Origin: Planctomycetota bacterium
GTDB taxonomy: Bacteria > Planctomycetota > UBA1135 > GCA-002686595
Direction: 5' to 3'
NCBI GenBank assembly: GCA_047639615.1
Contig: JBLIOL010000001.1
Location: 1-55,164 of the forward strand
Length of the DNA: 55,164 nucleotides
In this document: piece after piece, positions 2,982 through 55,164 of the stretch
Numbering within the stretch: the stretch's first letter is position 1
Layout of the letters: each line of letters starts with the position of its first letter
Translations under genes and position numbers: made by a program
Notes under the pieces: generated by a model
Told to the model about the DNA's origin: nothing
Databases searched by the model: none
What the model saw: only the letters and a program-made list of their open reading frames with translations

Positions 2982-3100
2982 GCTGATCAGCACTGAGGCC
3001 GAAGCCATCGTCCCACTGATCGATTGGCTAAGTTGAAGTGCTCGAAGCCTCGATGCTAGGCGATGTAATCTGGCGTGCTCGTTCACCCGACCACGACCAC

Positions 3101-3943
3101 ATGCACCGCCTAGCTCCGCTCGTCCTCTGCTGCTTCCTGTTTGCTTGCTCCACGCAGAAGGGCTCTAGCTTTCACTTTGATGGAGTCTGGAGCCTACGGG
3201 CAGGCGTCTCGAGCCAGGCTCAAGCGACAGCCGCCCTCGGCCGCGATCCCGATCTCAGCGTCACGGGCGACGGTCGCCAGCTGCTCGAGTGGGAACGCTC
3301 AGGGCGCGGCTTCATGGCGGGCATGGCCTTCGACATGCGTAAGGTGGTCCTTGAGTTCGACGAACAAGGAAGCTTGCTGCGGCCCGTGACCATTCTCGGC
3401 TGGGATCGCAAGTCCCCGGGCTTGCACTTCGGATTGGAGCAAGCCCTGCGCCTGGACCGTGAATTCGAGAGTCTGCGAGTGTCCATCCCCCACCTGGCCG
3501 ATGGTTGGGGCTGGTTTGGATTGCCCGTACTCATGCTGAGCGAAACCGCTGACGGCGGTACCTGGCTGCGCTGGGGCAATCTCCGCAACAGCACCGAGGG
3601 CACAGCCGAGGTCTACCTGACCTTCGCTGCCGATGGACTGCCGCTCACCTACCGCATCGTCTTCGGTGGAGGCGTGCTCTTTGGCTCCGCGCCGAGTTCG
3701 GCTGAGCTGCAGCGTCTCGCGCAAGAACATGCCCCTCTCCAACAGGTGCTTGAGGCGACCCAAGCACTACCGCGTTGGATCCAACGCAACGCGGATGGGA
3801 GCCTCCTGGTCAGTTGGAGCAACGGGTACCTAGGCGGATTCACGCAACGGCGACTGGCCTTCGACTCCCAAGGCCTGAGCGTGGATTCCAGTAGCGATCG
3901 CCCTCTCGATCGCTGGCCAACCCCGGTCCCCGGACAGCTCTAG
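3101..3943 (+). CDS. Hypothetical lipoprotein
   Basis: Internal ATG at 3101 gives MHRLAPLVLCCFLFAC-S with a lipobox-like LFAC. No recognisable domain. The ORF-track start at 3038 is probably too far upstream. Confidence 0.55.
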   Translation: MHRLAPLVLCCFLFACSTQKGSSFHFDGVWSLRAGVSSQAQATAALGRDPDLSVTGDGRQLLEWERSGRGFMAGMAFDMRKVVLEFDEQGSLLRPVTILGWDRKSPGLHFGLEQALRLDREFESLRVSIPHLADGWGWFGLPVLMLSETADGGTWLRWGNLRNSTEGTAEVYLTFAADGLPLTYRIVFGGGVLFGSAPSSAELQRLAQEHAPLQQVLEATQALPRWIQRNADGSLLVSWSNGYLGGFTQRRLAFDSQGLSVDSSSDRPLDRWPTPVPGQL

Positions 3944-3989
3944 ACGAGTCCGCCCTGCGTGACCGCGTTATCCGCACCCTCGGCTTGCA

Positions 3990-5171
3990 TCACTTAGGGC
4001 GTGTTTCCCTGAGGATCGCCTGCTCGAGCTCATCCGGATCCAGGCCCCAGGGTCCGGGCAAGCCCTGGTACGCCACGCGGCCATCCCGGCCTACTAGCAC
4101 CAGCCGATCAGGCCAAGCCTGGTAGGCGCGGCTCACGGCGTCGTCCACGTCATCCACTAGGTTGGGCAAGTCCACCATGTCGATCGCTCGCATGCAAACC
4201 TCGGCCACAGCGCGGCGCTCGCCCAAGTGCATGGGGTCTTCGACTTTAGGTGCGGACTCGCCGGTGAGCGGCACGGGTGAATCGATGGCGTGCGCCTCGC
4301 GGATGTAGACCACGAAGAACTGCACCTCGTCCCCATACTCAGCCCACAACTCACGCAGCCGACCGGCTGCCTTGCGAAAGGGAGGTCAGGTGTAGCTACC
4401 AAAAATCAGCGCCACCGGCTGATCACCCACGAATGACGACAGAGTCACAGGCGCGCCACCCCCGAGACTCTGCAGGGTGAAGTCGGGCGCCACGCGGCCC
4501 TCGAGCGGACGCTGAGCGACCTCGAGCTCCAACACCTCATCCCCTTGGGCAATCCTCCAGGGCTTGCCATCGGACCGGCTCCTGAAGAAGTCCAGGAGTT
4601 CCGAGCGCGCGATCCAACCATCCAAGTCGGAGTCGATGCCACCCAAGAGCCCTAACCAGGGATCGATACCTCTTAGCAGAGCCAGAGCCTGGCGGGATTG
4701 GGGTCCGGTCTCGGCCGGGGCCAATTGCCCCATGCCACAGCGGAACTCGCCCTCCCCAATGCGGTCGTCGCCATCGGTGTCATAGGCAGCGAAAGCACTG
4801 CGCAGCTCATCCGCTTCGATACGACCTCGATCGCCATCGGTCTGAAGGAACTGAGCCACCAACAGCGCTGCCCGTTCCGCTCGTTTCCGACTCCCGCCCC
4901 GAGGGGTGGCCAAGAAATCGCCAGCGCTGACAACGCCGTCCCGGTTGCGATCAAGCCGTGCGAAGGCTCTCGGAGTGCGGTCGTATTCCTGCGCTGAAAT
5001 CTCGCCATCAGAATCCACGTCATGGCGCTCGAGCAGATACTCCAAAGCGCTAGCGTGAACGCCCGCCTCCGAAGCCGGTACTGAGCTAGGGCCTGTAGGC
5101 AGTGACGAGGCGCCGCCGCAGGCAAGCAGGGAATAGCCTACGCAGGGGACTAAAAAGCGAAGCGGGATCAT
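3990..5171 (-). CDS. EF-hand / iodothyronine-deiodinase-like (thioredoxin-fold) lipoprotein with in-frame TGA (probable selenocysteine) at 4386..4388
   Basis: ORF 4386..5204 ends ...VALIFGSYT-TGA. The same frame continues PPFRKAAGRLRELWAEYGDEVQFFVVYIREAHA..., which is ORF 3990..4349. The join recreates the deiodinase motif FGSxT-U/C-PPF and the downstream VYIxEAH motif. Four EF-hand loops (DVDSDGEISAQE, DRNRDGVVSAGD, DTDGDDRIGEGE, DSDLDGWIARSE). Lipobox LLAC after the ATG at 5171. Confidence 0.7.
4355..4370 (-). promoter_or_regulatory. SECIS-like stem-loop downstream of the in-frame TGA
   Basis: mRNA reads UGA-CCUCCCUUUCGCAAG-GCAGCC-GGUC-GGCUGC. This is a perfect 6-bp stem with a GGUC tetraloop starting 15 nt after the UGA. 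The loop G/U lie about 21-23 nt from the UGA. Confidence 0.6.
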
Positions 5172-5407
5172 ATTGAAGGGAGGGTGACCCGAGTCGCAAC
5201 TCACTCGCGAGAACTACTCCGCCAGACGTCGACACGTGACGCATAGAAGTAGCTCGGACCGCGCGAGAGTTCGGGTCGTGCGCTTTGTATCCAAGCATCG
5301 GACGGAAGGTGACCGAATCCGAGCAGAAGGATTCCCTTCTGACTAAATACCTAAGCGTGGAACATGCACCTGCCCCGATGCGAGGCAGTTTGCGTACGCG
5401 TGCGCGC

Positions 5408-5992
5408 TTAACTCGCGTCGACAGCCAAGTCGCGCGTCTCACCCACTTCAAGGGATTCAAGCAGAAGCTCACCCGCGACCTCATCCAACCGAGCACCACC
5501 TCTGCGCACTTCGATCCTGTGCTCCACCTGAAACATCCGGCGGCTCACGTGCAGGATGATCTTCAAGTCGATTACTCGCACACCGGGCAGAGCTTTCTCA
5601 AGCGCAGGCAATGGTTGCTCTACCGTATCTTCGAGAAAGTCGGCCACGCAGGCGTACTCGACCCAAGTATCCCCTTCGCCGACCTTCTCGAACATCGAAC
5701 CGAGATGCGAATATCCCAATCGCCCGAGCAGGTCTACGTCGGCGTCCAACTGCTCGCGCCAAGGCGACCCGATTCGCAAGCGCCGCGAGAAATCCGTCAG
5801 CACCAAGTTCGCCATTCGAGACTCCAACTCCGGGCGCATCTGCTCGAGCTCGTTTGCCATCACGACGAGTTGCTCCTCCATCTCCCCCCTGCAGGTGCGG
5901 TCAGCAAGGAACAACGCGAGGGCCAGCAGCATGGCCGCACTCCCCGCTACAACGAGGAGCCGAGCCGTTCCGACTGAACGTTCGTGATACAC
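5408..5992 (-). CDS. Hypothetical membrane-anchored protein
   Basis: N-terminal hydrophobic helix (LLVVAGSAAMLLALALFLA) followed by a charged helical region. Lower GC3 and more TTG codons than neighbours. Competes with an antisense ORF at 5285..5977. Confidence 0.45.
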   Translation of the reverse strand: MYHERSVGTARLLVVAGSAAMLLALALFLADRTCRGEMEEQLVVMANELEQMRPELESRMANLVLTDFSRRLRIGSPWREQLDADVDLLGRLGYSHLGSMFEKVGEGDTWVEYACVADFLEDTVEQPLPALEKALPGVRVIDLKIILHVSRRMFQVEHRIEVRRGGARLDEVAGELLLESLEVGETRDLAVDAS

Positions 5993-6115
5993 AACTGTCA
6001 GTATGGGCAGAATCCCAATTTCCGGGGCCTAGTTCCGCGCTCAGGGTGAAACCCCAACGGCCTGTAGCGCAGCGCGCCGCGCTTGCCCCTGTTCGAGACG
6101 GGCTCTACAACTGGA

Positions 6116-7072
6116 ATGGACTACCCTCTCAGCATGTCCAAGCACGCTGACCCGGTGACTCCCGAGCGCTTCTACCCCATCGGAACCCCAGGCCAAGCCT
6201 GGACCGACGCCGAGAAAGCTCAGTGGTACGAGAGCCGCTCCATCGAGCGCAGCTACCAAGAGGAAGTACTGAGCAAGCTGCAGAGCCTCGACGAGTCTCT
6301 TGAAGCCGTGCAATACGGCGCCCTAACCCTCAACCCCGAGCGCTATCCCCTGTTCGCAGTCAAGAGCGCCCGGCCCCTCCCCGATGCCCCCTGGGTCCTG
6401 ATCACCGGCGGTGTCCACGGCTACGAGACCAGCGGCGTGCAAGGCGCCCTGGCCTTCCTCGCCGAACAAGCACCCGCCTACACGAAGCAGCTCAATCTGC
6501 TGGTCGCGCCCTGCGTAAGCCCCTGGGGCTACGAGGTCATCAACCGCTGGAACCCCAGCGCCATCGACCCCAACCGCTCCTTCGTAGCGGACAGCCCCTG
6601 CGAAGAGTCCGCCGCCCTCACCAAGCTGGTCCAAGACCTGGGCGCGAACTTCCTAGTCCACGTAGACCTGCACGAAACCACCGACAGCGACGAGGACGAG
6701 TTCCGCCCGGCCAAGGCAGCCCGCGATGGCGAGCCGAACGAACCCGGCCTGATCCCCGACGGCTTCTACACCGTTGGAGACAGCGAGAACCCCCAGGCAG
6801 AATTCCAAGCCGCCATCGTCGCCGGCGTAGAGCAGGTCACTCACATCGCGCCCCCGGACGCCAACGGCGAGATCATCGGAGCCAAGATCACCCAACCCGG
6901 AGTGATCAACTACCCCTGCAAGGAGCTAGGCCTGTGCGCCGGCCTAACCGACGCAACCTACACGACCACCACCGAGGTCTACCCGGATAGCCCGAAGGTC
7001 ACAGACGAGCTCTGCAACAAGGCTCAACAGGCCGCGCTCCAAGCCGCTCTAACCCACGCCCTCAAGCAGTGA
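6116..7072 (+). CDS. M14-family zinc carboxypeptidase-like protein (AstE/AspA / DUF2817-like)
   Basis: Zinc-ligand motifs GGVHGYETSG (HxxE) and VDLHETT. Start is uncertain: TTG 6083, ATG 6116 or ATG 6134. Confidence 0.7.
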   Translation: MDYPLSMSKHADPVTPERFYPIGTPGQAWTDAEKAQWYESRSIERSYQEEVLSKLQSLDESLEAVQYGALTLNPERYPLFAVKSARPLPDAPWVLITGGVHGYETSGVQGALAFLAEQAPAYTKQLNLLVAPCVSPWGYEVINRWNPSAIDPNRSFVADSPCEESAALTKLVQDLGANFLVHVDLHETTDSDEDEFRPAKAARDGEPNEPGLIPDGFYTVGDSENPQAEFQAAIVAGVEQVTHIAPPDANGEIIGAKITQPGVINYPCKELGLCAGLTDATYTTTTEVYPDSPKVTDELCNKAQQAALQAALTHALKQ

Positions 7073-8275: not shown

Positions 8276-11119
8276 TTAGCCGCCGACTTTTTCCGGGTCC
8301 TTTGAATTCGTGGGCGCTGATTCCCGATCAGGCTCCACTTCCACCGGCGTCTTGGGGCGCTGAGCCCGGCGCAAACGGGCTGCTTGAGCCTCCTGAGCCA
8401 GCAATAGAGCACCCGGAGCATCCCCGAGCAGGTCCCCCCACAGACTGCCCTCGCCGGGCGCCGGCAGCTCCCCCGCCGCGAGCTGGGCCTCGGTCGGCAG
8501 CCCCTCGAAAGCCTTGACGACCTCCTCGAGCGCAGCCCAGCGGCCCTGGTTGGTGGCGGCTTGCGCGGACTTGGACCAGGCCAAGAGATGTTCGCTGCGC
8601 GCGGCTTGGGGCAGGTTGCGCCAAGCGCTGTGATGGAGGAGCCGACGCCAGAGCAAAGGCTGCTGCACGTGCTGCGCCAGCCGCTCCAAGTCCGTGACGT
8701 CCAACAACTGATCCGCGGCCCGATGTAAGTCCTCGTCCTCCACACTCATCAAGGCGCGCGCAAGCACGCGCGCATCGCGATCCAGTAGCTTGCCCGGTTC
8801 ACCCGCCAAGGGCGCGCCCGCGGCGAGCCGCTGCAGGAAGCGCAAGCGTTCGCGATGCACGAGCACCTTCAAACGCGCGGTCGTACCCTCGCCTGGCAAG
8901 GCGCGCGCGAAGGCCGCCAAGATAACTCCGCGCTGCTGCTCCGCACCCTCGCGCGCCACGCGCAGTCGCGCCTCCAAGAGCGACCACTCGGCGCTCTCCG
9001 TCTCGCTGGTGAGGGCCGGCAAATGACGCTCGAGCAGCGCTGCCGCCAACCAACCCGCTGTCTCTCCAAACGCCAAACGCGACTGCCCGCGCAACAGCTC
9101 CGCGCTCCAGCGCAGGACCTGACGGTGATCTTCTAAATCAAAGCCCGCCACCTGCGCCTGCTCAAGACCGGCGACGATGTGCAGGGCCGAATCCAAACGC
9201 ATGGCCAAAGCCGCGGGTGCTTCCGTCGCGCCCTCAGCTAGGGGCCCAGGCAAGACCGCCATCCAGCGAGCCGCGCGCATGCGCTGCTTGCCATCGGATC
9301 CGGAGAGCGTCAGTACAAGCTCGCCCAGGGCCACCGAGCGCTCGCGCTCCGCCCGGCGCAGGTCCCCCACCCCAGCGCGCTGCAAGAATTGATCGAGCGC
9401 GTCCGCGCCCGGCTGCCCGCGCAGCTGCCGCTCCACCAATTGGATCATGGCGGTCTGCAGATCGACCAAGGTCTCACCTACGGCCGCAGTCAGCAGCGCT
9501 TCCACCAACTGCGCGTTGCCGGTGCTGCGCTGGGAGCGCGCCTCCACCAGCAAGGGATCGGTGCCGAGGAAGCGCACCGAGCGTCGGCGCAACTCCGCAT
9601 CCCCCGCCACCAAGTCCGTACCTAGGCAAGCGAGCAAGCGCCCACGCGACTCCGCGCCAACGGACTCACCCGGCGCCAGCAGCGCCTTCTCCGTGAGCGA
9701 GTACACCGCCACGCGCAGGGCACTCGGCAAGGCACCCGCCTCCAGCAGGTCCAAGCACGTAGCAAGCTCCGCCGGCCCAGGACTGAGCCGGCCCAAGGCC
9801 GCCACAACCGCAAAGCGCACCGCGTCCGACTCCTCGCCCTCGCCCAAGAGGTCGCGCACCAAGGACGCACTGCCCTGCAGGAAGTCCTCCTCCCCACGCG
9901 CACCCGCGCGCTCGGCCAAGCGACTCCAAACATTCTGGGCCAGAATCAGATCATCCCCGTCCACCGGCGCGCCGCGACTGAGCAACTTGACTAGCACCTT
10001 CGACGCGAGCTGCACATCATCCACCAGCACCTCACTAGGAGCACCCTGCGCCGCCTGCGCCGCCGGCAAGCGCTCCAAGGCAGCGATCAACACCGGCGCC
10101 AAGTAAGGCGTGGCGTCTGCGAGTCGTTTGTGCAAAGCCAGTCGCAAGGACGCGCTGATAGGCGCCTCGGGACCGGCCGCCTGGGCCAGTTCAATCAGCG
10201 CCGAGAGCACCGCGTGCAAGGCCTTGGCCTCCGGCTCCACAGCGACGCGATCCAGCAAACTCGCCGCGACCTCATCGCGACCTTGTTCCTGTGCACCGAT
10301 GGCGCGCAGCAAGCGCTGGGCTGCCAGAATTCGAAGCTCCGGATCCGGCCCATCGAAGAGCTCCTGAGCCACCTTCGGATCCATCTCGAGCAAGCGCAAG
10401 CGCAGCTCGCGGGCGGTGTCGCTGGCTTGCACGAAGGCGGCGCGTACGGCCAAGGCCTCCGGCCCCATTTCCGTGGGCAGCGGCCCGGCGCTCTCGCCGT
10501 CAAGGACCCAGCGACCGAGGAAGGTCCGCAAGGACGCCCGCGCGCTGAGCTCCACCAAGCCTAGTGGACTGTGTTCGAGGAAAGGCAGCAGGCTCGGCGC
10601 CAAGTGCACCAGATCCAGCTCAGCCGCCACCACCATGGAGGCCGCGCGCAAATCCTGACTGGTATCCGGGCGCAGCTCGGGACCGGTGCCTAGCTCCAGG
10701 TGCCACTCCAAACGCCGCAGCCAGGGCTGCTCCTGTTCGCTGCCCAGGGCCATGTCCGACCGCAGCGCCTGCAGGGCAGCAGCCCGCGTCGCCTCGCGCT
10801 GCTGCTGGCGCGCGCCCGTAAGCCCCGGCGGCAGGGGCCGCCCCGCCTGCAGAATCAAGGCGTCCCGCCCAAGCACAGGATGCGCCATCAGTAGCACCCC
10901 AGCGGCCTCGGCCAGCTCTTCAGCAGTCAGAGCCTCCAAGGTACGCAGCACCGGACGCAGGCGCCTTCCAGCAGCCGCCTCGGCCTGGGTCTCCGGAAAG
11001 AGCGAGTCCGAATAGGAGCCGCCCGCTCCAAAGTGGGCCTCCACCAGCCCAGACATCGACAACGCAGCCAATACGAGGCACAGGACGAGACGCGCACCCT
11101 CTCCCAAGAGGGGTTGCAT
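8276..11119 (-). CDS. Large secreted/membrane-anchored alpha-helical (HEAT/ARM-like) repeat protein, function unknown
   Basis: Long uninterrupted ORF. The ATG at 11119 gives MQPLLGEGARLVLCLVLAALSMSGLVEA, which is signal-like. Ala/Leu/Arg/Glu-rich helical repeats throughout. Confidence 0.7.
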   Translation of the reverse strand: MQPLLGEGARLVLCLVLAALSMSGLVEAHFGAGGSYSDSLFPETQAEAAAGRRLRPVLRTLEALTAEELAEAAGVLLMAHPVLGRDALILQAGRPLPPGLTGARQQQREATRAAALQALRSDMALGSEQEQPWLRRLEWHLELGTGPELRPDTSQDLRAASMVVAAELDLVHLAPSLLPFLEHSPLGLVELSARASLRTFLGRWVLDGESAGPLPTEMGPEALAVRAAFVQASDTARELRLRLLEMDPKVAQELFDGPDPELRILAAQRLLRAIGAQEQGRDEVAASLLDRVAVEPEAKALHAVLSALIELAQAAGPEAPISASLRLALHKRLADATPYLAPVLIAALERLPAAQAAQGAPSEVLVDDVQLASKVLVKLLSRGAPVDGDDLILAQNVWSRLAERAGARGEEDFLQGSASLVRDLLGEGEESDAVRFAVVAALGRLSPGPAELATCLDLLEAGALPSALRVAVYSLTEKALLAPGESVGAESRGRLLACLGTDLVAGDAELRRRSVRFLGTDPLLVEARSQRSTGNAQLVEALLTAAVGETLVDLQTAMIQLVERQLRGQPGADALDQFLQRAGVGDLRRAERERSVALGELVLTLSGSDGKQRMRAARWMAVLPGPLAEGATEAPAALAMRLDSALHIVAGLEQAQVAGFDLEDHRQVLRWSAELLRGQSRLAFGETAGWLAAALLERHLPALTSETESAEWSLLEARLRVAREGAEQQRGVILAAFARALPGEGTTARLKVLVHRERLRFLQRLAAGAPLAGEPGKLLDRDARVLARALMSVEDEDLHRAADQLLDVTDLERLAQHVQQPLLWRRLLHHSAWRNLPQAARSEHLLAWSKSAQAATNQGRWAALEEVVKAFEGLPTEAQLAAGELPAPGEGSLWGDLLGDAPGALLLAQEAQAARLRRAQRPKTPVEVEPDRESAPTNSKDPEKVGG

Positions 11120-11246
11120 TCGCGGCCACTCGGGCCTTCTCGTCGGCGTTCTCACTACACTTCCTATCGTACCGAGGCGCCCGCCGATCACGTGTCCGAG
11201 TGCGCTTTCTGTCCGCTCCGAGACGCATGACGCCCCATCCGCGAGA

Positions 11247-11804
11247 TCACTCCGCCAGCAAGGCCTGCAGCTCGAGCAGCACTTGGTCCGGATCTAGGTC
11301 ATCCACATCGAGCACGTGCTGAGCCACTTCCGCATACAGGGCCCTACGCTGATCGGCCACCGCCGCCATCTCCTCCGCCGGCGGCGCACCGGTCAGACTG
11401 GGCCGCAGAGTGCCGTCCGCTATCAAGCGTTCAGCCAGGCGATCCGGCTCGGCCCGCAGCCAGACACAAATCGAACGCTGGCGCAGGAGCTCACGCGAGC
11501 CCGCGTCCAACACCGCCCCACCGCCCGTGGCCAGCACCCCGAAGCTAGGCGTCTCCTGGCCCAACAGCTGCGCCAAAGCGCGCGCCTCCAAACCCCGAAA
11601 GGCCGGCTCCCCCAGCTCCTCGAAGAGCTCCCCCGCCGTGCGCCCGAAACCTGCCTGCGCAAGCTCAACCAACGCATCATCCAAGTCCACGAACCCCACA
11701 CCCAGGGCCTTAGCCAAAGCTCGTCCACTGGTGCTCTTGCCCGAGCAGCGCTGCCCCACAAGCGTCACCGGCAGGCTCACGGGTAAGCCAGACCCGCCGC
11801 TCAT
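11247..11804 (-). CDS. aroK: Shikimate kinase
   Basis: P-loop GQRCSGKSTSGRALA, then DLDD and ATGGGAV motifs. ATGA start/stop overlap with the upstream gene. Confidence 0.85.
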   Translation of the reverse strand: MSGGSGLPVSLPVTLVGQRCSGKSTSGRALAKALGVGFVDLDDALVELAQAGFGRTAGELFEELGEPAFRGLEARALAQLLGQETPSFGVLATGGGAVLDAGSRELLRQRSICVWLRAEPDRLAERLIADGTLRPSLTGAPPAEEMAAVADQRRALYAEVAQHVLDVDDLDPDQVLLELQALLAE

Positions 11805-13345
11805 TCGCCGCCCCCCGGCCGCGCCCTGCGCGCCAGCACGCCTTCCAAAGCCGCGCGCATCAGAGGCTCATCCGGCGCCTGGTGCGTGAACAGTTCAAAC
11901 TGCTCCTTGGCCTGGCGCACGAACCACTCCGCACCGGGCACCGCCGTACAACCCCTTGCCGCCGCGGCCGCCAAGAGCGGCGTGCGAATCGGGCTGTACA
12001 CCGCGTCGAGTACCAGGCTCCCCGCATGGATCCACTCCTCCGGAATCGGCAGCTCGCCATCCGTCGGGCTGCCCGCCGTACCCACCGGCGTGCAATGCAC
12101 CAGCACATCCCAAGCGTGCTCCGGAATGCTCTCCCAGGGAATCATCTCGAGACTGAGCTCATCGGCCAAAGCACGCGCCCTCTCTGGATCACGTGCCGCG
12201 ATCACCGGCCGCGTATCACACTCGATCAAGGCGCCCAGAGCCGCCCGCGCCGCACCGCCCGCACCGAGCACCAGCGGCTTCGAAGCAGCGACCGCCACCG
12301 GTCGACCAGGCTCCGAACTGTGCACATGGAAAGCGCGCTCCAGCGTCTCGCGCACCGCGCCCACGTCCGTGTTGAACCCGCGCCAACCCTTGCGGTCGCG
12401 CACGAGCGTGTTGCAAGCGCCGTTGCGCTGGCTGCGATCATCGACCTCGTAGGCCGCCGCGAAGGCCGCCTCCTTAAAGGGCGCAGTGACCGAGAAGCCG
12501 CGGAAGTTCTCGTCATCCGCAAGCTCCAAGAAACGTTCAAGATTCGCCGGCTCAAGCGCCACATACACCGCGTCCAAATGCGCGTGCTTGAGCGCCATGC
12601 CCTGCACAAAGGGCGAGACCGAGTGCCCGATGGGATTACCCACCACACCTAGCACCGCAGTCTCGGGCGAGAAGCCACCCGGAGGCGCCAAGCCCACCAA
12701 TTCATCGATACGCAGCTGCCCCGGCGCGGTCGGCTCCATAGCTCCTACACCGGGCAACTCCGCCGCTGCCGCGTAGGTGAAAGGTGATCCAAAAATCGGC
12801 GCCAACACGCGCGTGAATGCACCCGCCGGCCCCGAGCAGAACGCGATCAAGCCCCCACGCGCCTGGCGCAGGTGCTGCATCATGCGCAGGCCATCTTCCG
12901 TGCAACGCGCATGGGTCACGAGCTTGACCGCATCGCCTTCATACAGCACCGCTCGAATCTCTTCGTCCAGCGCCGCGATGTCCATGGGCGTGCACTCGAG
13001 CTCATGCCGCGACACGATGCGATGGCACGGCGCTTCCACCTCGCCCAGCTCCAAGGACAAGGTCCAGTCGATGTCCACAAAGCGCGCACCCGCCCGCGCC
13101 GCCGACTGCAACAAATCGCAGCGCTCATCCAAGCTGCCGCGGAAGGTCCCAAAGGCCTCGGCCCCGTGCACGGTCACAATCACCGGCACCGGACACTCTT
13201 TCATGAACGCTCGCAAGCGCTCCTCCCCCGGATGCGGAATGCGATCCAGCCGCAACTCCACCAAGTCAGCCAAGGGCGCCTGCTGCAAAGCGCGCCGCGC
13301 CAACAAATCGAAATCACCAGCGAGTAAGGAAACGACGGTAGCCAT
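11801..13345 (-). CDS. aroDE: Bifunctional type I 3-dehydroquinate dehydratase / shikimate 5-dehydrogenase
   Basis: N-terminal half: VELRLD, SRHE (His), VKLV (Lys), APGQL, which are type I DHQase features. C-terminal half: GVVGNPIGHSVSPFVQ, FRGFSVTAPFKE, NTDVGA, LGAGGAARA, which are shikimate dehydrogenase features. Confidence 0.85.
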   Translation of the reverse strand: MATVVSLLAGDFDLLARRALQQAPLADLVELRLDRIPHPGEERLRAFMKECPVPVIVTVHGAEAFGTFRGSLDERCDLLQSAARAGARFVDIDWTLSLELGEVEAPCHRIVSRHELECTPMDIAALDEEIRAVLYEGDAVKLVTHARCTEDGLRMMQHLRQARGGLIAFCSGPAGAFTRVLAPIFGSPFTYAAAAELPGVGAMEPTAPGQLRIDELVGLAPPGGFSPETAVLGVVGNPIGHSVSPFVQGMALKHAHLDAVYVALEPANLERFLELADDENFRGFSVTAPFKEAAFAAAYEVDDRSQRNGACNTLVRDRKGWRGFNTDVGAVRETLERAFHVHSSEPGRPVAVAASKPLVLGAGGAARAALGALIECDTRPVIAARDPERARALADELSLEMIPWESIPEHAWDVLVHCTPVGTAGSPTDGELPIPEEWIHAGSLVLDAVYSPIRTPLLAAAAARGCTAVPGAEWFVRQAKEQFELFTHQAPDEPLMRAALEGVLARRARPGGGE

Positions 13346-21706: not shown

Positions 21707-21903
21707 TCGCGCCTAAAAACGGCCGCTCGGAACGTGCGAGTTCTGTAGCACTCGCCAGACGCATTAGAAGGCTTCCGTATATATGGCCCAGCCATGTAGG
21801 TCGGTCCCCTCAGGGGGTGTAGATTCGTGCCCGAGCGGTCGATTGCAGTGTGAGGTCTCGCCTCCCCATCGACCCGAAATCCCGGACACATCGATATACC
21901 AAC

Positions 21904-22926
<1,023 letters not shown>

Positions 22927-22933
22927 CGCATTC

Positions 22934-23857
22934 ATGCCCGCACGTACCGGCGTAATCGACCCCGAGGTCCTGGACAGGCTAAACGGCTTGTCCTTGGTGG
23001 CACGCAAGGTGGTGGAAGGCTACATGGCCGGCCACCACACCTCGCCCCACCGCGGTAGCTCCGTGGAGTTCCGTCAGCACCGGCCGTACACGCCGGGCGA
23101 TGAGCTGCGCAGCATCGACTGGAAGGTCTTCGCGCGCTCCGACCGCCTGGTGGTCAAGGAGTACGTGGAGGAGACGCACCTCTCCCTGACCCTGATGCTC
23201 GACGCATCCGAGTCCATGGCCTACGGGTCGATCGAGGGTGAGCACGGCATCCGCACCAAGTTCGACTACGCGCGCTGGTGCGCTGCAGCCCTCGCGCACC
23301 TGACCCTCGGTCAGCGCGACACGGCGGGCCTGGTGATCTTCGACGAGAAGGAACGCGTCAAGGTCCCGCCGGCCAACGGTGCTCCCCAAGAGGCCGCGAT
23401 CCTGCAAGCCCTGTCGGAGGCGCGGCCCACCGGCCTCACCGCCGTGGGCGACGTGCTCGGCTGGCTCGGTAGCCGCCTAGCACACCGCGGCCTGACCGCG
23501 ATCTTCTCGGACTTCTTCGACGACCTCACGACCATCCGGCGCGGCCTCGAACAACTGGTGCACGGCGGTCATGAACCGATCCTGTTCCAGGTGCTCGACC
23601 CCGCCGAATTGAACTTCGATTTCAACGCACTGCTCAGGCTCGACGGGCTCGAAGGCACCGGCATTCATAAGATCGACCCCAAGGCCATCCGCGAGGCATA
23701 CCGCGCGGAGATCCAGGCCCACAACGAGCAGCTGGCAAAGGCCGCTCGACACCTCTCACTCGACTACGTGGTGATGACCACGGACGAGCCCCTCGACGCA
23801 GTCATTGCTGCGTACCTGGCCCGGCGTACCGCGCGGGCCCGTGGAGGCAGCCGCTGA
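22934..23857 (+). CDS. DUF58 (VWA-like) protein, MoxR partner
   Basis: HRGSSVEFRQHRPYTPGDELRSIDWKVFARSDRLVVKEY, then LMLDASESM. This is the typical DUF58 core, 7 nt after moxR. Confidence 0.88.
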   Translation: MPARTGVIDPEVLDRLNGLSLVARKVVEGYMAGHHTSPHRGSSVEFRQHRPYTPGDELRSIDWKVFARSDRLVVKEYVEETHLSLTLMLDASESMAYGSIEGEHGIRTKFDYARWCAAALAHLTLGQRDTAGLVIFDEKERVKVPPANGAPQEAAILQALSEARPTGLTAVGDVLGWLGSRLAHRGLTAIFSDFFDDLTTIRRGLEQLVHGGHEPILFQVLDPAELNFDFNALLRLDGLEGTGIHKIDPKAIREAYRAEIQAHNEQLAKAARHLSLDYVVMTTDEPLDAVIAAYLARRTARARGGSR

Positions 23858-23872
23858 TGGAGAACCCCCAGC

Positions 23873-26131
23873 ATGCTTGAAGGCTTCGTCCACCCGGCCT
23901 TCGCGGGACTCACGGCCCTGGCCGCAGTCCCGCTGATCATCCACCTGCTCAACCGCCAGCGCCACCGGCCTGTGCAGTGGGCAGCCATGCGTTTCGTTCT
24001 GGCCGCCTACAAGAAGACGCGCCGCCGCGTGCAGCTGGAGAACCTGCTGCTGTTGCTGCTGCGCATGGGGGCCGTGGCGCTCTTGGCCCTGGCCATCGCG
24101 CGTCCCTTCGCCGCCGGCGACGGCGCCTTGGGCAAGCTTACCGAGGCGCGCCGCGACCTCATCCTGGTGCTGGATGGCTCCGCCTCCACCGGTTACACCC
24201 AGGGCATCGAGACCGTCTTCGAGCGCATCGTGAAGCGCGCCACCGAACTGGTGGAAGAGCTCGAGGGTGACGGCGCCAACCGCGTCTACGTGATCCTCGC
24301 CGGCGACCGTCCGCGACTCCTATCCTGGCCTAGCCCGGAGAAGGCGGCCAGCGTCCTAGGCACCTTGAGCGCGCCCCTCGACGAGGGGATGGACCTAGCC
24401 GCGGCCCTCGCTGAAGTACGCCGCCTCGCGGAAGACGAAGCCGCCGGCGCCGTGCGCAGCAGCCTCGATGTGCGCCTGCTAACCGACCTGCAACGCAACG
24501 CCTTCCTCAACGCTGCGGGAGCCCTCGACGCGCAGCAGACAACGAGCGCGGACGAGCTCAGCGCCGCGGGCCTGATCGATCAACTGGATGCCCTGCAAGC
24601 CATGGACATCCAAGTGCAGGTGGAGGACCTAGGCCCCGGCGTCTTGAACCCCGCCAACCTAGGCATCGTGGATGTGGCCCTGGTAGGCGACGCCATGGAC
24701 AACGGTCCCCTGCAGGTCAATGTCACGGTCGCTAACTACGGCACCTCGCGCGCCAATGCGGTGCGCGTCGGCTTCAGCCTCGATGGCAATCGTTACCCCA
24801 GTCGGCGCGTGGACGTGCCCGCACAAGGTACCGGTGAAGCCGTCTTCCACTTGCCCAGCGGCTTGCAAGGAGCGCAGGCCCTGGAAGCCACCCTCGAGGG
24901 CGACCGCTTGACCGCGGACGACACGCGCGCCTCGGTGCTGCTGCTACCGGACCCCGTACGCGTTTTGCTGGTGAACGGCACCCCCAGCGATCGCTTCGAA
25001 GACGACGCTGTGGGCTTCCTTGAGATCGCCTTGGCGGCACCCGAGTTCGGCGCTGCGGAGGACACGCACCTGACCAAGGTCAGCCCCTTCGACGTACGCG
25101 TGGTAACGCCCTCAGCCCTGGTATCCGGTGAGGTCCTGCTCGCCGAGCAGGACGTGATCTGGTTGGCCAACACACCGCCCCTGGCGCAGAGCGTCCTCAC
25201 CGCCCTCGAAGAGCGCGTGGCCGCAGGCGCCTCGCTGATCATCTCTATGGGCGATCGCGTGGGCGACGCCGGCAGAGATGGCCGCGGACTATTCCGCGCC
25301 GACGGCACGGGCTTATTGCCCGCCGAACTAGGCCGCCGTGTCGCCGCACAGAGTCGCGAGAGCTTCTTCCAGGTGGGCGAATTCGACGGCATGCACCCCG
25401 CTCTGCAGTTCTACAACGATGAAGCCCTGCAGCGCCTGCTGACGCAAGTGCCCTTCCACGAGTTCGTCCTGGCACGACCTCTGACCGGCTCCCGCGTACT
25501 GGCGAGCCTCAATGACAGCGCCTCCAGCCCGCTGCTGATCGAGCGCCACTTCGCCGCTGGCAAGGTGCTCGTCTGGACCTCGACCATGCACCCGGATTGG
25601 ACGCCCTTCCCCGCCCTGGGCAAGACCTTCATTCCCTTCGTCTTGGAGCTCGTGCGCTACGCGGGTGGCGCCAAGGTGCTTGACCGTGACATTGCGCCGG
25701 GCGCTCCCCTGCGCATTGAGCTAGCCGACTTCCCGCGCTCACCGTCCCTGGTCAGGCCCGACGAGACCCGACGCGGCCTCGACGGCGCGCCCGAAAGCAC
25801 CCCCGCAGGCGCGTGGCTCTTGCCGCCCCTCGGCGAGGGCGACACGCGCCGCGCGGGCCTCTACAAAATCAGCGTGGAGTCCGGTGCCGAGCACCCCTTC
25901 GCAGTGCAACTGGATCCCGCCGAAGGCAACCTCGAACGCATGGGCCAAGCCGAGCTCGCCGGCTTGCATCCGGCCCTGATCCCATTCCGCCCCGCCGACG
26001 CTGGCGATGACTCCGGCTCCCCCGCCGGCCGCGGCGAAATTTGGCGCTGGCTGGCCATGCTCTGCCTGGCTGCCCTGGTGACCGAATCACTCTTCGGCGC
26101 CTGGCTTGGTCGCAAGCGGAGGTCCGCATGA
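23873..26131 (+). CDS. BatA-type membrane protein (aerotolerance-regulator N-terminal two-TM domain plus VWA-like domain)
   Basis: N-terminus LTALAAVPLIIHLLNRQR...LLLLLLRMGAVALLALAIARP, then LVLDGSASTGY (DxSxS-like). C-terminal TM WRWLAMLCLAALVTESLF. Confidence 0.8.
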   Translation: MLEGFVHPAFAGLTALAAVPLIIHLLNRQRHRPVQWAAMRFVLAAYKKTRRRVQLENLLLLLLRMGAVALLALAIARPFAAGDGALGKLTEARRDLILVLDGSASTGYTQGIETVFERIVKRATELVEELEGDGANRVYVILAGDRPRLLSWPSPEKAASVLGTLSAPLDEGMDLAAALAEVRRLAEDEAAGAVRSSLDVRLLTDLQRNAFLNAAGALDAQQTTSADELSAAGLIDQLDALQAMDIQVQVEDLGPGVLNPANLGIVDVALVGDAMDNGPLQVNVTVANYGTSRANAVRVGFSLDGNRYPSRRVDVPAQGTGEAVFHLPSGLQGAQALEATLEGDRLTADDTRASVLLLPDPVRVLLVNGTPSDRFEDDAVGFLEIALAAPEFGAAEDTHLTKVSPFDVRVVTPSALVSGEVLLAEQDVIWLANTPPLAQSVLTALEERVAAGASLIISMGDRVGDAGRDGRGLFRADGTGLLPAELGRRVAAQSRESFFQVGEFDGMHPALQFYNDEALQRLLTQVPFHEFVLARPLTGSRVLASLNDSASSPLLIERHFAAGKVLVWTSTMHPDWTPFPALGKTFIPFVLELVRYAGGAKVLDRDIAPGAPLRIELADFPRSPSLVRPDETRRGLDGAPESTPAGAWLLPPLGEGDTRRAGLYKISVESGAEHPFAVQLDPAEGNLERMGQAELAGLHPALIPFRPADAGDDSGSPAGRGEIWRWLAMLCLAALVTESLFGAWLGRKRRSA

Positions 26132-28569
26132 TGCTCGGCCTACTATCAGCAATGACTTCCTTGCAGGCACCCATGGCTTGGATCCAAGACTCCACCGCCC
26201 TGCGTATCGCCGCCGATGCCACCCGCGAGAGCTGGCGCTTCCTGGAAGCGCCGAAGCTTTGGATCGTGGTCATGTTGGTGCTGCCGATCACGGCCCTGGT
26301 GGCCTACCTGGCCTACCGGCGCGAGCCCCTCAGTCGCGGCCGGCGCTGGAGCCTCTCCAGCCTGCGCTTCCTGAGCCTCTTGGTCTTGCTCTTCGTGCTG
26401 GCGCGCCCCGTGCGCGTGCAGTCGCAGGAGCGCGTGGAAGGTGCCGAGGTGATGGTGCTGCTGGATAGCTCCGCCAGCATGAGTCGCAAGGACGCCTACC
26501 GCGGCAACGACGAAGCGCGCGCCGCCCTGCAGCTACTCAGCGGTCAAGACCCAGCCGACCAGAGCCGCATGGACCTGGCACTGACCGTGCTGGAGAAGCG
26601 CCTGCTGCCCTTGCTCGAAAGCAAGGCTTACACCCCGCGCATCTTCCGCTTCGACGATTCCCTTACGCCCCTACCGGACCTGGAAGATGTCAGCGCCCGC
26701 GGCCACGGCACGCACCTGGGCGACGGCCTAGCCCAGGGCCTCGCGTCCCAACGCGCGCGGCACCTGACCCACGTGGTGGTGATCAGCGACGGACGTTCGA
26801 ACGGCGGCACCCCCGCTCTGGATGCCGGCGCCGCCGCGCGCGCCGCCGGAGTCCCCGTACACACCATCGTGATCGGCGACACGCGCCCGGAACACAACGC
26901 GGTGCTCGAGCTATTGGACGCCCCTAGCAGTGTGCTCGAAGGCGATGAAGTCACGGTGATCGTACGCGTAACCGGACGCGGCATCACGAACCGCCCGCAG
27001 GCGCGCGTGGTGCTCGAAGAGTTGGACCCCAGCGGCCAAGCTCGGCCCCTGGCCGAGGAGTACGTGGAACTGCAAGCCGACGGCGAGCGCGTGGTGCTCG
27101 TCGCGCCTTCGGACCTAAACGCCTCCACCAACGAGAACGGTGAGCGCCGCTTCCGCGTGTCCGTGGAGGCGCTTCCGGAAGAGCACATGCTCGACGACAA
27201 CAGCGTCAGCCTGCGCGTCACGGTCACTCCCGAGCGCATTCGCGTGCTCTACATCGACGGCTATCCGCGCTACGAGTATCGCCAGCTGCACTACATGCTG
27301 AAGCGCGCCGACGAGCGCATCGCAGCGCAGATGTTCCTGATGTCGGCCACCCCGGACTTCCCCCAGGAAGTCACCCAAGGCCTGACACCTCTGAAGCGTG
27401 TGCCCACGGGCCGGCGCGAGCTGCTCGACAACTACGACGTGATCCTGTTGGGCGATGTGGACCCCTATCAGATCTCCGAGGACCCGGCCCAGGGCGAAGA
27501 GTTCGTGGCCAGCCTGTTCGAGTTCGTGGAACGCGGCGGCGGCCTCGGCATCATCGCCGGCGAGTACGACAACCCGGGCAAGCTAGCCGGTACGGAGTTC
27601 GCCAAGCTGCTGCCCGTGCGCCTGGACCCCACCGGCGCCCTGGCCTTCGACGTACCCACCGACGAAGCCACCTGGCCGCGCCTGGAGAATCCCGCCGCGC
27701 CCCACGAGATCATGCGCTTGCATCCCGACCTGGATGTGAACCGGCGCCTGTGGGAAGAGCGCGGTGGCCTGCAGGGCTTCCTCTGGTACTTCCCCACCCT
27801 GGGCGCCAAGCCCGGTGCACAGGTGCTCATGCGGCACCCCACGGCTTCGCTCTCGGGTGCCGAAGAGCGCGACCCCCTACTGGTGCTCGGCTACTACCCC
27901 GCCGGCCGCACCATGTTCCTCGCACACGACGAGACCTTCCGCTGGAAGTACCGTTTCGAGGAGCGCTATCACCAGCGCTTCTGGCGCAACGCGATCCGCT
28001 GGTTGGCCCTCGGCCGACTCAAGAGCGGCGACCGGCGCTACTCCCTCGAGCCCCTGCGGCGCACCTCCACCCTGGACGAACAGGTCACCTTGGAGGCACG
28101 CATCCTGGACGAGGACTATCAGCCCAGCCCGGACCCTACCCAGGAAGCCTGGTTGGAGCCCGATGGCGGCGAGCGCGAACCGGTGGAACTCCTGGCGGTG
28201 GAAGGCCGGCCGGGACTCTTCCGTGCCTCCTTCCAAGCCAGTAGGCCAGGCAGCTACCGCGCCTGGATCGAGGCCGGCGGCAAGCGCTTGACCACCACCG
28301 AGTACGAAGTGGTCTTGCCGAGCGCCGAGAACGCCGACCCGACCCCGGATCCCGAGAGCATGGCCGCCCTGGCCAGCCTGACCGGCGGCATCGCCGTCAG
28401 CGCCACGGACCTCACGGCTCTCGAAGAAGCCCTGCCCGGGGGCGAGGAACGCCGCGAACCGCTGACTTCCTCCTTGGAGGACGCCTGGGACCATTGGGGC
28501 GTGCTGTTGCTCGCTCTGGGCATTCTGTCCATCGAATGGATCCTCCGGAAGCGCTACGAGCTGGTCTAG
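26128..28569 (+). CDS. VWA-domain membrane protein (BatB-like) with C-terminal TM anchor
   Basis: ATGA overlap with the previous gene. TM helices near the N-terminus. MIDAS VMVLLDSSASMSRKD. 'YDVILLGDVD' segment. C-terminal WGVLLLALGILSIEWIL. Confidence 0.8.
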   Translation: MMLGLLSAMTSLQAPMAWIQDSTALRIAADATRESWRFLEAPKLWIVVMLVLPITALVAYLAYRREPLSRGRRWSLSSLRFLSLLVLLFVLARPVRVQSQERVEGAEVMVLLDSSASMSRKDAYRGNDEARAALQLLSGQDPADQSRMDLALTVLEKRLLPLLESKAYTPRIFRFDDSLTPLPDLEDVSARGHGTHLGDGLAQGLASQRARHLTHVVVISDGRSNGGTPALDAGAAARAAGVPVHTIVIGDTRPEHNAVLELLDAPSSVLEGDEVTVIVRVTGRGITNRPQARVVLEELDPSGQARPLAEEYVELQADGERVVLVAPSDLNASTNENGERRFRVSVEALPEEHMLDDNSVSLRVTVTPERIRVLYIDGYPRYEYRQLHYMLKRADERIAAQMFLMSATPDFPQEVTQGLTPLKRVPTGRRELLDNYDVILLGDVDPYQISEDPAQGEEFVASLFEFVERGGGLGIIAGEYDNPGKLAGTEFAKLLPVRLDPTGALAFDVPTDEATWPRLENPAAPHEIMRLHPDLDVNRRLWEERGGLQGFLWYFPTLGAKPGAQVLMRHPTASLSGAEERDPLLVLGYYPAGRTMFLAHDETFRWKYRFEERYHQRFWRNAIRWLALGRLKSGDRRYSLEPLRRTSTLDEQVTLEARILDEDYQPSPDPTQEAWLEPDGGEREPVELLAVEGRPGLFRASFQASRPGSYRAWIEAGGKRLTTTEYEVVLPSAENADPTPDPESMAALASLTGGIAVSATDLTALEEALPGGEERREPLTSSLEDAWDHWGVLLLALGILSIEWILRKRYELV

Positions 28570-28582
28570 CACCCCATAATTC

Positions 28583-31500
28583 ATGCGCATCGCCCGCCTC
28601 CTAACCCCTTTGACCCTCGGTCTGCTCTGCGCTAGCGCACGGGCGGTGGCAGCGCCTGTTACGCCCCAGGAGTTCCAGGCGGAGGAGGTCTTAGCCTTTC
28701 AGATCTACGACACCCAGGCTGCTCGTGCGATCCAGGAGGAAGCGCTTGAGCACTTCGAGGCGGGCCGCCTGCGCGAAGGCCTGGCACAGCTGCAGCTCCT
28801 GATCGAGAGTCACCGCGGCGCCGTGCTCGCGGCCGAGCACCCGCGCGCCGAGGGCGCGCCGCGCAAGTCCGTGGGCAAGGTGCACGCCGGAGCCAGCTAC
28901 TGGGCCTACAGCCAACTCTTCGATGTGACCGAAGAGGCCGCCGAGCTCTACCGCGAACGCTACGAAGGCCGCGCACAGAAAGCGCTCGAGCACGCCATCG
29001 CCCGCGGCGATGTGGCCGAGCTCGTCTCCCTCTCCACGCGCTGGCCTCTGACACGCGCCGCCGAGCGCGCTTGGTGGGCTATCGGCGACCTGGAGACCGA
29101 ATCCAGTCGCCCCGAAGAAGGACGCGTGGCCTGGAGTCGCGCCGTGGCCTTGGCCCTCGGCAATCCCAAGGCCGCACCGCGCGATGCGGGCGCTTGGATC
29201 GAAGCCCTGGCCTCCATTGAAGCGAGTGCCCCAGGCAGCGCGCGCTTGCCCGGCATCCAAACCCGCATCCGTCTGGTGCTCGAGCAACTGAGCACGATCG
29301 ATGAGGCCCCCAAGCCCGACCCGAGCGACCCGAGCGACACGAGCGCAGTCAGCAAGTGGGCCACGGCCCTAGGCGGCGCCGACGATCTGGGCCGCCCCTT
29401 CTCGGATCAGACCGAGTCATGGCCGCGGGGCTTCGAATTGCCCCTGCACCCTTTCCGCTCGGGGAACTACGCGCTCTATCCCGCACGCAGCGGCGACACG
29501 GTGTTCATCAACACCTCGCGCCAAGTGCTGGCCGTGGAAGCCTTCACCGGAGATGAAATCTGGGGCAGCTCCCCACGCGATCTGGGCTGGGAGACGAGGG
29601 CCTCCGTGAACTCAGAGTTCACCCGCGGCATCGACACCAAGTCCAACCTGCAAGCCCCCGCAGCGACACTCGACACCGTGGTCGCCGCCCTGCAGGTGCC
29701 CTTCCTGTTCATGTCCTCGGACAGCTTCAAGGATCTGGAGATCATCACCCCCATCCCGGAGCGCCGCTTGATGGCGTTCGATGCGAAGACAGGTGATGTG
29801 CTCTGGGCCAACATGCCGCCCGAGGACTGGGATGGCGAGAGCGGCGACTACGCTGCGCGCGTGAACGTGGTGGGCCCGCCGGTGATCATCGGCAATCGCG
29901 TACTGGTGCCGACCGCGCGCATGCGCGGCCGCATCGAATTCCACGTGGGCTGCTTCGACCTCGATACGGGCGCCACGCTCTGGTACACGCCACTGATTAC
30001 CGGTCAGCGCGAGCTCAACATGTTCGGCCGCGAAGAGGTCGAGTTCTGCGCACCGCCGGTGGTGATCGCGGGCGATCGCGTGGTGGTCCAAACCCAGCTG
30101 GGCACGGTGGCCTGCCTGGACCTCTTCACGGGCAACGTGCTCTGGCAGAGCCTCTACCCGCAGCTATCGATCACCGAGCCCAACTACTACCGCTCGGGCA
30201 GCATGGCCAGCGTCTGGCGCAACGCGCCCCCGGCCGTTACCGAACACACGGTGGTATCCACTCCGGTGGACTCGCGCTACCTGATGGGCTTCGACCTGGA
30301 GTCCGGATCGGTGCTCTGGCAGCTGGACTACAGCGGCCTGAGCGACGCCATGAACGCCGGCCGCTCGCGCAATCCTCTGCAATATCTGATCGGCGCCGAC
30401 GAGGAGCACGTAATCCTGGCCGGTCGGCGCGTCGCGAGCTTCCGCACAGCTACCGGCAGCTTGACCAACGCGCCGCCGACCATGCTGCACTGGAGCTGGC
30501 CCGCCGATGAACCCTTGTCTTCCAACCAGCCCCGAGCGGTGATGGACGAGGAGCGCATTTTCGTCCCGCGCGAGTCGACCCTGGTGGCCGTAGATCGCGC
30601 TACCGGACGACTGGAAACTGAGTTCGATTGGGAAGGCCACCGCGGCAACCTGATGCTCTCGGATGGACAGCTCTTCTCCCTCGGCCCGCGCCAGCTGTGG
30701 GGCTTCTTCGAGTGGGACGCCATGCTTACGCGGGCCAAGGCCAAGCTGGCAAAAGCCCCCACCGATGAGCGCACCATGGTGAGCTACGCGCGCCTGCTCA
30801 TGCAGCGCGGTGTCTCCGCCAGACGCAATGGCGGCAGCAATGAATTGCTCGCCTCCCTACGCTCCCTGAGGCAATCGCGCCAGGTGCTGGACACCTTCCT
30901 GGACGGCGCCAAACCCAGCTCCGAGGTTCAGAAGACGATCTACTCGGTGCTGCATGAACAAGCCACCAGCCAGCGCCTAGGCGCCGACGGCCGCGCGGCC
31001 CTGGGCTCCCTCAAGGAGGCGCTCACCCTGGCCACCACCTCGCGTCAACGCCTGGACACTCTGATGGTGACCCAAGCTCTACTTCGCGATCGCGACGAAC
31101 CCCGCCGGCGTTTGGTGCTGACTCAATTGGTGGACGACTTCGCCGCCATCGAGACCGTCTTCCAAATACTCGACCAAGGCTGGGTAGCTGGCGACGGCTC
31201 CTGGAAGGGCCGCCTCGAGCCGGCCGCGGTTTCCTTGGCCCAGGACAAGGACATCCCCATGACCCTGATGCCCATCGGGCTATGGGGTCTGATCGAACGT
31301 GCGGAGAGCCGCGGCATGGATCGTTCGGCTAGCGCCAAGGCCGCAACCTTCGCGGACCTGCACCGCATTCTGGCCGACTACCCGGACGAACCCTTCCGCG
31401 GCGACCTAGCCCTGACCTGGGCCTCCGAGCGCATCGGCGAGCACCTAACGGCGGGCAACGGCCTGGGCTACGAGCGCTTCTCCAAGGAGTCGGAGGAACT

Positions 31501-40461: not shown

Positions 40462-40471
40462 CAAGCGGCCC

Positions 40472-44761: not shown

Positions 44762-44893
44762 GTGGAACCTTGGTGGCCTGTCGTTGAGTCAAAGGGAAGC
44801 AGCCCCCCACAGGGGCCTGTTGCTCGATTCGGTGGCACCGAATGACTATTCGCGGTGCTTCAGGGTTTTCTCCGCCCCCCTCGAGGGGCCACC

Positions 44894-55061: not shown

Positions 55062-55164
55062 TCTCAAAGCATCAACTCCCCGTTACGGGGCCCCACTACA
55101 AATTGAACGGCGTACCGAAAGAGCACGCCCTCCGAAGTCCTGCGCCTGAAGTACACCGCGATAC

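Follow-up and report, generated by a model that had tools for sequence, protein, structure and literature searches.

Here, we report a predicted selenoprotein gene at positions 5171..3990 (minus strand) of a 55,164-bp stretch of DNA from a Planctomycetota bacterium (GenBank assembly GCA_047639615.1, contig JBLIOL010000001.1, positions 1 to 55,164 of the forward strand), which is referred to below, at its full length, as the window. Judged from sequence comparison, the locus is very probably one gene, in an uncultured member of the Planctomycetota, that encodes a 393-residue selenoprotein belonging to the deiodinase-like family of prokaryotes, with the recoding and protein architecture set out below, and its internal TGA almost certainly encodes selenocysteine (Sec). 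The unity of the gene, the Sec/Cys pair at its active site, a covarying bacterial Sec insertion sequence (bSECIS), and the linkage of Sec-decoding (sel) genes to the same gene in relatives were either observed directly or are strongly supported.

The minus-strand open reading frame (ORF) 5204..4389 has the C-terminal end GDQPVALIFGSYT and is followed by TGA at 4388..4386, past which the same frame runs on as PPFRKAAGRLRELWAEYGDEVQFFVVYIREAHAIDS... for 131 codons and ends at TGA 3992..3990. The complete coding sequence (3990..5171, minus strand) thus has 393 codons, with ATG at 5171, the predicted Sec-UGA as codon 262, and a terminal TGA at 3992..3990; the TGA at 4386..4388 is the single internal one in this frame. 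The gene caller places the start of the N-terminal product (P0001; 261 amino acids [aa]) at ATG 5171, and this is the likely start rather than GTG 5204; with it, the protein has a lipoprotein-type signal peptide at its N terminus. An earlier note on this DNA, made from the sequence alone, had described the locus as split by the ORF caller into 4386..5204 and 3990..4349, and the ORF list holds the same two pieces. Its proposal that the TGA joins them stands, with the frame open from the TGA to 3992..3990 and a Pfam match running across the junction: the joined protein (U written as C) scored 76.5 bits against PF00837 T4_deiodinase (cut-off, 27; E = 2.4e-21) over residues 216-385. The motifs that the note had read as FGS.T-[U/C]-PPF and YI.EAH are both present, and in an alignment, FGSYT-TGA-PPF and YIREAH match mouse Dio3 (FGSCT[U->C]PPF and YIEEAH) column for column. 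A scan of the window for TGA-joined ORFs gave 60 candidates, among which only this locus appeared to be coding to either side of the TGA and had a plausible motif.

Homologues were sought among 5.8 billion proteins. Fourteen of them stop exactly at ...LIFGSYT, and the full-length homologues from the same search read FGSYTCPPF or FGNFTC[GAS]P[FY]. When aligned (alignment A1, 16 sequences), the TGA column was occupied by Cys in 8/8 Cys-form homologues, so that Cys sits exactly at the TGA, in an invariant column, as the earlier note had expected of Cys-containing relatives. The DNA of seven stopped homologues (eight loci) has TGA at this codon in every locus, and the roughly 130 in-frame codons that follow match Pfam T4_deiodinase in those eight loci. 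A genome scan, using one genome per GTDB species, gave at least 597 relatives, and codons were tallied on the best 80 loci; the motif could be placed in 76, with TGA in 72, TGC in 3, and TGT in 1. TGA forms were found with a pattern (F..VYIREAH) that matches past the site and therefore favors neither codon; because the best 80 loci are those most similar to the Sec-form query, the ratio describes the neighborhood of the window gene and not the whole family. Over all loci tallied, TGA was found in 80 and TGC or TGT in 4.

The frame past the TGA is maintained as well as the frame before it. The ratio of nonsynonymous to synonymous substitution rates (dN/dS) after the TGA was 0.16 to 0.38 against seven homologues, indistinguishable from that of the 53 codons upstream, so purifying selection acts equally on the two sides. 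These data bear on the possibility that a nonsense mutation split a Cys-type gene, leaving two genes or a pseudogene, with only a 261-residue EF-hand protein being made and the rest decaying or separately initiated. ORF callers and public annotation do list two separate products here (for P0022, the N-terminal half carries the NCBI name "hypothetical protein"), and no Sec machinery lies in the 55-kb window. Such a split is nonetheless exceedingly unlikely, given that TGA occupies this codon in 80 homologous loci spanning several phyla, with an intact downstream frame, that the thioredoxin fold would be cut at its active site, and that a covarying hairpin follows the TGA and sel genes adjoin the gene in relatives (both described below). 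The Cys pairing, the recurrent TGA, the downstream selection, the SECIS hairpin, and the sel genes near the relatives' genes together bear out the earlier note's view of one selenoprotein gene rather than two genes or a pseudogene. A reassigned genetic code, with UGA standing for Trp or Gly, was also considered and is ruled out: TGA terminates 16/20 Pfam-supported genes in the window, which excludes a UGA-sense code, and homologues have Cys at the site.

A bacterial SECIS, which the earlier note had raised as a check, was found as a core hairpin, GCAGCC-GGUC-GGCUGC, at 4355..4370 (minus strand), with a 6-bp stem beginning 16 nucleotides (nt) past the UGA and a 4-nt loop beginning 22 nt past it. 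The local fold has it as its centroid structure, with an energy of -10.2 kcal/mol alone, -11.8 kcal/mol in context, and -15.2 kcal/mol for the UGA plus 42 nt. RNAalifold, run on an alignment of 41 distinct sequences that is gapless from the TGA to 57 nt downstream (alignment A2), yielded exactly the core helix and nothing else. In that alignment, 95.5% of cells in the core helix are paired, and compensatory double changes occur in four of its six pairs (for example, the closing pair changes from U-A to G-C, and Latescibacteria have U-A in place of C-G, giving CAGCU-GGUC-AGCUG). None of 500 shuffles reached the observed pairing, and every slid register fell to 4 to 52% pairing. The loop is GGUC in 41/41 sequences, including the synonymous third position of a Gly codon.

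The published bSECIS model specifies a loop of 3 to 9 nt on an upper stem of 4 to 16 bp, a G in the first two loop positions (pattern G[G|U]), a UGA-to-loop distance of 16 to 37 nt, and a minimum free energy (MFE) of -7.5 kcal/mol or lower (PMC13188914). The hairpin lies within each of these bounds, with a 4-nt loop (GGUC) on a stem of 6 bp, the G in 41/41 sequences, a distance of 21 nt (15-nt spacer plus 6-nt stem), and -11.8 kcal/mol in context. The archetype of bacterial SECIS elements, that of Escherichia coli fdhF, is likewise a coding-region hairpin with a small G-G-U apical loop at a prescribed distance from the UGA; the element described here differs in that its stem sequence is unrelated and its core helix has no bulged U. 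The apical loop of fdhF is also GGUC. A possible extended SECIS, with a lower stem (UUCGC/GUGAG) and an AAG bulge under the core, was tentatively placed at 4350..4378 (minus strand) from the MFE fold. As a conserved feature, this lower stem was rejected; it folds in the window only (-15.2 kcal/mol MFE) and is absent from the consensus fold. Rfam models run on the window reported tRNA-Met only and nothing over the hairpin.

The hairpin overlaps the codons for A-A-G-R-L, and its sequence thereby imposes the peptide [SA]-A-G-R-L on the protein. No Cys form of this clade has the AGRL peptide, and no hairpin was found at this position in three of four Cys-form loci. Distant Sec forms have differing hairpins at the same place, with stems of about 6 to 7 bp and loops of 3 to 5 nt; across them, the predicted hairpin structure is conserved while its sequence is not. 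These distant forms (L046-L088; e.g., L046:10112-10160, L057:10130-10178, and L066:10181-10229) come from Gaiellales/Thermoleophilia, Chloroflexota, Deltaproteobacteria, and Acidobacteriota, are without the EF-hand domain, and have loops of GGU, GUC, GCU, or CGUGA, not GGUC.

The peptide and hairpin also bear on whether an ordinary Cys-type gene, with TGC or TGT at this codon, was misread as TGA in sequencing or assembly. One base separates TGA from either codon, and Cys forms with an identical FGSYTCPPF exist (P0002-P0004 and P0007-P0010). Against this, the window has the SECIS hairpin together with AGRL, both of which belong to Sec forms only and are in no Cys form of the clade. A contig of Logan assembly SRR28416755 (L089, 5366 bp) is, moreover, 100% identical to the window over 2786 bp (window 3386-6171), TGA included; an identical stretch in a run-level assembly means that the same organism or the same sample was sequenced at least twice, the run possibly deriving from samples related or identical to the source of the window. 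About 80 homologues, too, have TGA at this codon. The chance that the TGA is an error is negligible in our judgment.

Relatives of the gene lie beside the machinery for Sec decoding. In the Planctomycetota-type relatives L004, L005, L011, and L013, whose proteins are 58-62% identical to that of the window over the thioredoxin-fold domain, tRNA-Sec, then selA and selB, are convergent with the deiodinase-like gene (L004:6001-12147; L005:6001-11786; L011:1293-5456; L013:3371-8633). In L013, selD comes next, and its selD (TIGR00476, 346 bits; cut-off, 125), selA (TIGR00474, 542 bits; cut-off, 268), and selB (TIGR00475, 369 bits; cut-off, 242) are all above the NCBIfam equivalog cut-offs. L015 has tRNA-Sec 2.4 kb from the gene, after which the contig ends (L015:4101-7153). 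In Proteobacteria, Sec genes are generally near fdhA (PMC4807772).

It could also be supposed that the locus is one translated gene in which UGA is decoded as Cys on tRNA(Sec), or by a near-cognate tRNA as Trp or Arg, the Sec machinery having been lost or never present. The absence of Sec machinery within the 55 kb would agree with this, but the SECIS is intact, with a core identical to that of relatives that have selC, selA, selB, and selD next door, and the closest relatives all keep the TGA. General suppression is unlikely, since true stops in the window are most often TGA. We regard non-Sec decoding as very unlikely and recoding of codon 262 as Sec, on the combined sequence evidence, as strongly supported.

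The predicted protein has three parts. A signal peptide with a lipobox (MIPLRFLVPCVGYSLLA before C18) was read from the sequence motif at 5118..5171 (minus strand); residues 1-18 (MIPLRFLVPCVGYSLLAC) gave a loose lipobox fit in a motif check, with Leu at position -2, and a regular-expression check found a lipobox-like motif before Cys in many homologues (LTGC, LSGC, LAGC, or VTGC). The protein is accordingly predicted to be exported and lipid anchored via Cys18. An EF-hand region with four canonical 12-residue loops follows at 4599..5021 (minus strand), the loops starting at residues 51 (DVDSDGEISAQE), 74 (DRNRDGVVSAGD), 131 (DTDGDDRIGEGE), and 180 (DSDLDGWIARSE); Pfam EF-hand models scored above their cut-offs (EF-hand_6, 50.6 versus 25; EF-hand_7, 50.5 versus 30; EF-hand_1, 44.7 versus 25.4), and the four EF-hands would be expected to bind Ca2+. 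EF-hand loops occur in 43/81 TGA forms, essentially the Planctomycetota clade; distant clades have short N termini of 60 to 100 residues.

The third part is the deiodinase-like thioredoxin-fold domain (residues 216-385; 4017..4526, minus strand), identified by Pfam PF00837 and a PDB profile search. It holds Ser259, Thr261, Sec262, Glu292, and His294, all of which are kept in common with deiodinases, as is a C-terminal PDRL...GPxG block, and in addition Cys326 (...VAxxC...), a nearly invariant, family-specific Cys. The PDB profile search placed Dio3 (4TR3, E = 5e-31) and Dio2 (9H48, 1.4e-28) ahead of the next match (4.5e-9). As a structure model standing in for the window protein, we used the Cys homologue P0002 (AlphaFold; mean pLDDT, 84.5; pTM, 0.78), for which Foldseek ranked 4TR3 and 9H48 first and second (target-normalized TM-score, 0.77-0.79), followed by Etrx2, ResA, and DsbE/TlpA-like reductases (target-normalized TM-score, 0.8-0.86). 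Those reductases share the thioredoxin fold and are exported and membrane tethered; they use CxxC, whereas the window protein has a single Sec in T-U-P-P-F, a distant Cys, and a deiodinase-specific insertion. In one close relative (P0015, 451 aa; L010:1219-~2700), the part after the TGA extends about 320 residues past the deiodinase domain; no Pfam match beyond PF00837 was found in P0015, which may be a three-domain variant.

In the mechanism that we propose, the GCAGCC-GGUC-GGCUGC hairpin would recruit SelB with Sec-tRNA(Sec) while the UGA is in the A site, and the delivered Sec-tRNA(Sec) would decode codon 262 as Sec; the terminal TGA of the gene has no such element, and translation would end there. 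Once exported, the selenolate might attack a periplasmic oxidant or electrophile (peroxide, sulfenic or disulfide species, or halogen), Cys326 might resolve the oxidized selenium as a selenenyl-sulfide, and an extracytoplasmic thiol system could then reduce that bond, with Ca2+ binding stabilizing or gating the enzyme. A peroxidase- or oxidoreductase-type role of this kind is, in our view, the likeliest one, at about even odds.

Several observations weigh against parts of this account. ARAGORN gave no tRNA-Sec in the 55-kb window (tRNA-Met only), a tblastn search with SelA and SelB queries from L004 and L005 found neither selA nor selB there, and no sel gene appeared among about 45 window ORFs scanned with Pfam. 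No conserved operon partner emerged from all-against-all clustering of ORFs within 6 kb at 85 loci; apart from the gene itself, only the sel genes (in four loci) and one small cluster (in eight) were shared, and the gene seems to be a solitary one, outside any conserved operon. The proposed biochemical function is drawn entirely from comparison, the suggested resolving role of Cys326 from its conservation, and the lipoprotein call from the motif. Residues of Dio3 have also been replaced: His219 corresponds to Pro (in EDP), Arg275 to Pro (in GLPGP), and Cys239, the resolving Cys of Dio3, to Leu here. Because His219 and Arg275, which we take to be the thyroxine-binding residues (by Dio3 numbering), are not conserved, the protein is probably not a thyronine deiodinase.

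The same replacements bear on whether the protein could be a true reductive dehalogenase of non-thyronine halogenated aromatics (iodinated or brominated phenolics, or halotyrosines of algal or sediment origin), working by Se...halogen chemistry. Its sole characterized relatives, the deiodinases, also rank first in the sequence and fold comparisons; the active-site motif is retained, as is the Glu/His relay; and, as in deiodinases, there is a strong preference for Sec over Cys in the nearest relatives. Both presumed thyroxine-binding positions are Pro in the clade, no dehalogenation-related neighbors were found, and the describers of the family suggested a generic redox role (PMC1088965). Reductive dehalogenation seems to us possible but unlikely. 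A broader conjecture, which we hold to be similarly doubtful, is that these proteins are calcium-gated periplasmic selenoenzymes (counterparts of SELENON, or organohalogen dehalogenases) and also an "anchor" selenoprotein that maintains Sec decoding in a large uncultured clade; the presence of tRNA-Sec, selA, selB, and selD beside the gene would be explained if such an anchor were at work.

SELENON combines one EF-hand with a Sec-containing thioredoxin-like domain in the lumen of the endoplasmic reticulum. The window protein resembles it, by analogy only, in that it would pair EF-hand calcium binding with a Sec redox domain in an oxidizing extracytoplasmic compartment, and differs in having four EF-hands and a catalytic domain that is not homologous. 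With vertebrate DIO1-3, it has in common FGSxT-U-PPF, YIxEAH, a C-terminal P(D/E)RLY...G.GP block, and membrane tethering (predicted here). The vertebrate enzymes have a SECIS in the 3' untranslated region rather than a coding-region hairpin and an N-terminal transmembrane helix rather than a predicted lipid anchor, and the EF-hand domain is extra here; with His219, Arg275, and Cys239 of Dio3 not conserved, a thyronine substrate cannot be assumed.

The deiodinase-like protein has been a recognized prokaryotic selenoprotein family since the Sargasso Sea study of Zhang, Fomenko, and Gladyshev in 2005, which reported four sequences with Sec, homologues with Cys, and a SECIS of the bacterial type and proposed "a redox function" (PMC1088965); the window gene thus joins a family that is already known and is an incremental addition to it. 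In common with the 2005 family, the window gene has PF00837, the UGA/Cys pair, a bacterial SECIS just downstream, and a suggested redox role. The Global Ocean Sampling (GOS) study of 2008 added 22 Sec sequences and 21 Cys homologues (PMC2398784), and the family is listed in reviews of 2022 and 2026 (PMC9312934, PMC13188914). The earlier note's description of such proteins as known mostly from metagenome surveys and uncharacterized agrees with these sources (PMC1088965, PMC2398784, PMC13188914). The accounts of the family cited here make no mention of an EF-hand/lipoprotein architecture, a concentration in Planctomycetota, sel adjacency, or an invariant GGUC SECIS. Two of them tabulate the family motif as "UxxC" (PMC9312934, PMC13188914); the window protein has U-P-P-F, with no Cys at +3, as in vertebrate DIOs. 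In this comparison, made by the tabulated motif only, the difference points to either a further subfamily or some imprecision in the tables.

A related named protein family is NCBIfam NF038285 (deiodinase_rel; a hypothetical equivalog), which comprises Cys forms from Gemmataceae, Schlesneria, and others and shares with the window protein a homologous C-terminal domain and EF-hand-like N-terminal loops. The window protein scored 202.4 bits against this model, below the cut-off of 250 and over model positions 176-341 only, whereas true members score 458 to 500 bits over their full length, those seen here having FGNFTC[GAS]P[FY]. It is outside NF038285, in a sister subfamily that no NCBIfam model is dedicated to.

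In public gene calls, genes of this type are systematically divided into an "EF-hand" or "hypothetical" protein ending ...LIFGSYT and a short T4_deiodinase fragment (P0005, P0013, P0016, P0018, P0019, P0021-P0026, and P0029-P0031; e.g., NCBI GY715_08320). Recognizing the Sec codon corrects the annotation of the window gene and of at least dozens of Planctomycetota metagenome-assembled genomes (MAGs). The Planctomycetota clade offers experimental handles on what bacterial deiodinase homologues do, a question that dates from 2005: the predicted export and lipid anchor, four calcium-binding loops, a candidate resolving Cys, the loss of thyronine-binding residues, a well-defined GGUC SECIS, and linkage to sel genes.

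The window has a G+C content of 65.9% and carries chromosomal housekeeping genes. Its enolase is 76 to 87% identical to many MAG proteins, the named ones (at 76 to 84% identity) being almost all from Planctomycetota bacterium, and among the matches listed, those nearest to the deiodinase-like gene likewise come from Planctomycetota MAGs. No synteny was found between the window and the named MAG loci. The ORFs flanking the gene (3038-3943, plus strand; 5408-5992, minus strand) have no Pfam match and no homologue beside the gene in 88 related loci.

Elsewhere in the window, 11247-13345 (minus strand) encodes a shikimate kinase, then an aroD-aroE fusion (type I 3-dehydroquinase/shikimate dehydrogenase, 514 residues). 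A string of MoxR (AAA_3), DUF58, BatA-VWA, and VWA genes at 21850-33217 (plus strand) resembles the "Bat aerotolerance" operon and is followed by a gene for a 1544-residue protein with PQQ/BamB-like beta-propeller repeats. Five large ORFs of 607 to 971 residues (8276-11191, minus strand; 34351-36696, 36696-39560, and 48766-51324, plus strand; 53244-55067, minus strand) gave no Pfam match at E <= 1e-3 or 1e-4. A di-heme cytochrome c peroxidase (CCP_MauG) homologue at 46692-48542 (plus strand), with predicted periplasmic peroxide handling, has an NHL-repeat protein (44855-46846) just upstream, and prenyltransferase/squalene-hopene-cyclase-like alpha-toroid proteins are encoded at 33112-34350 and 40343-41677.

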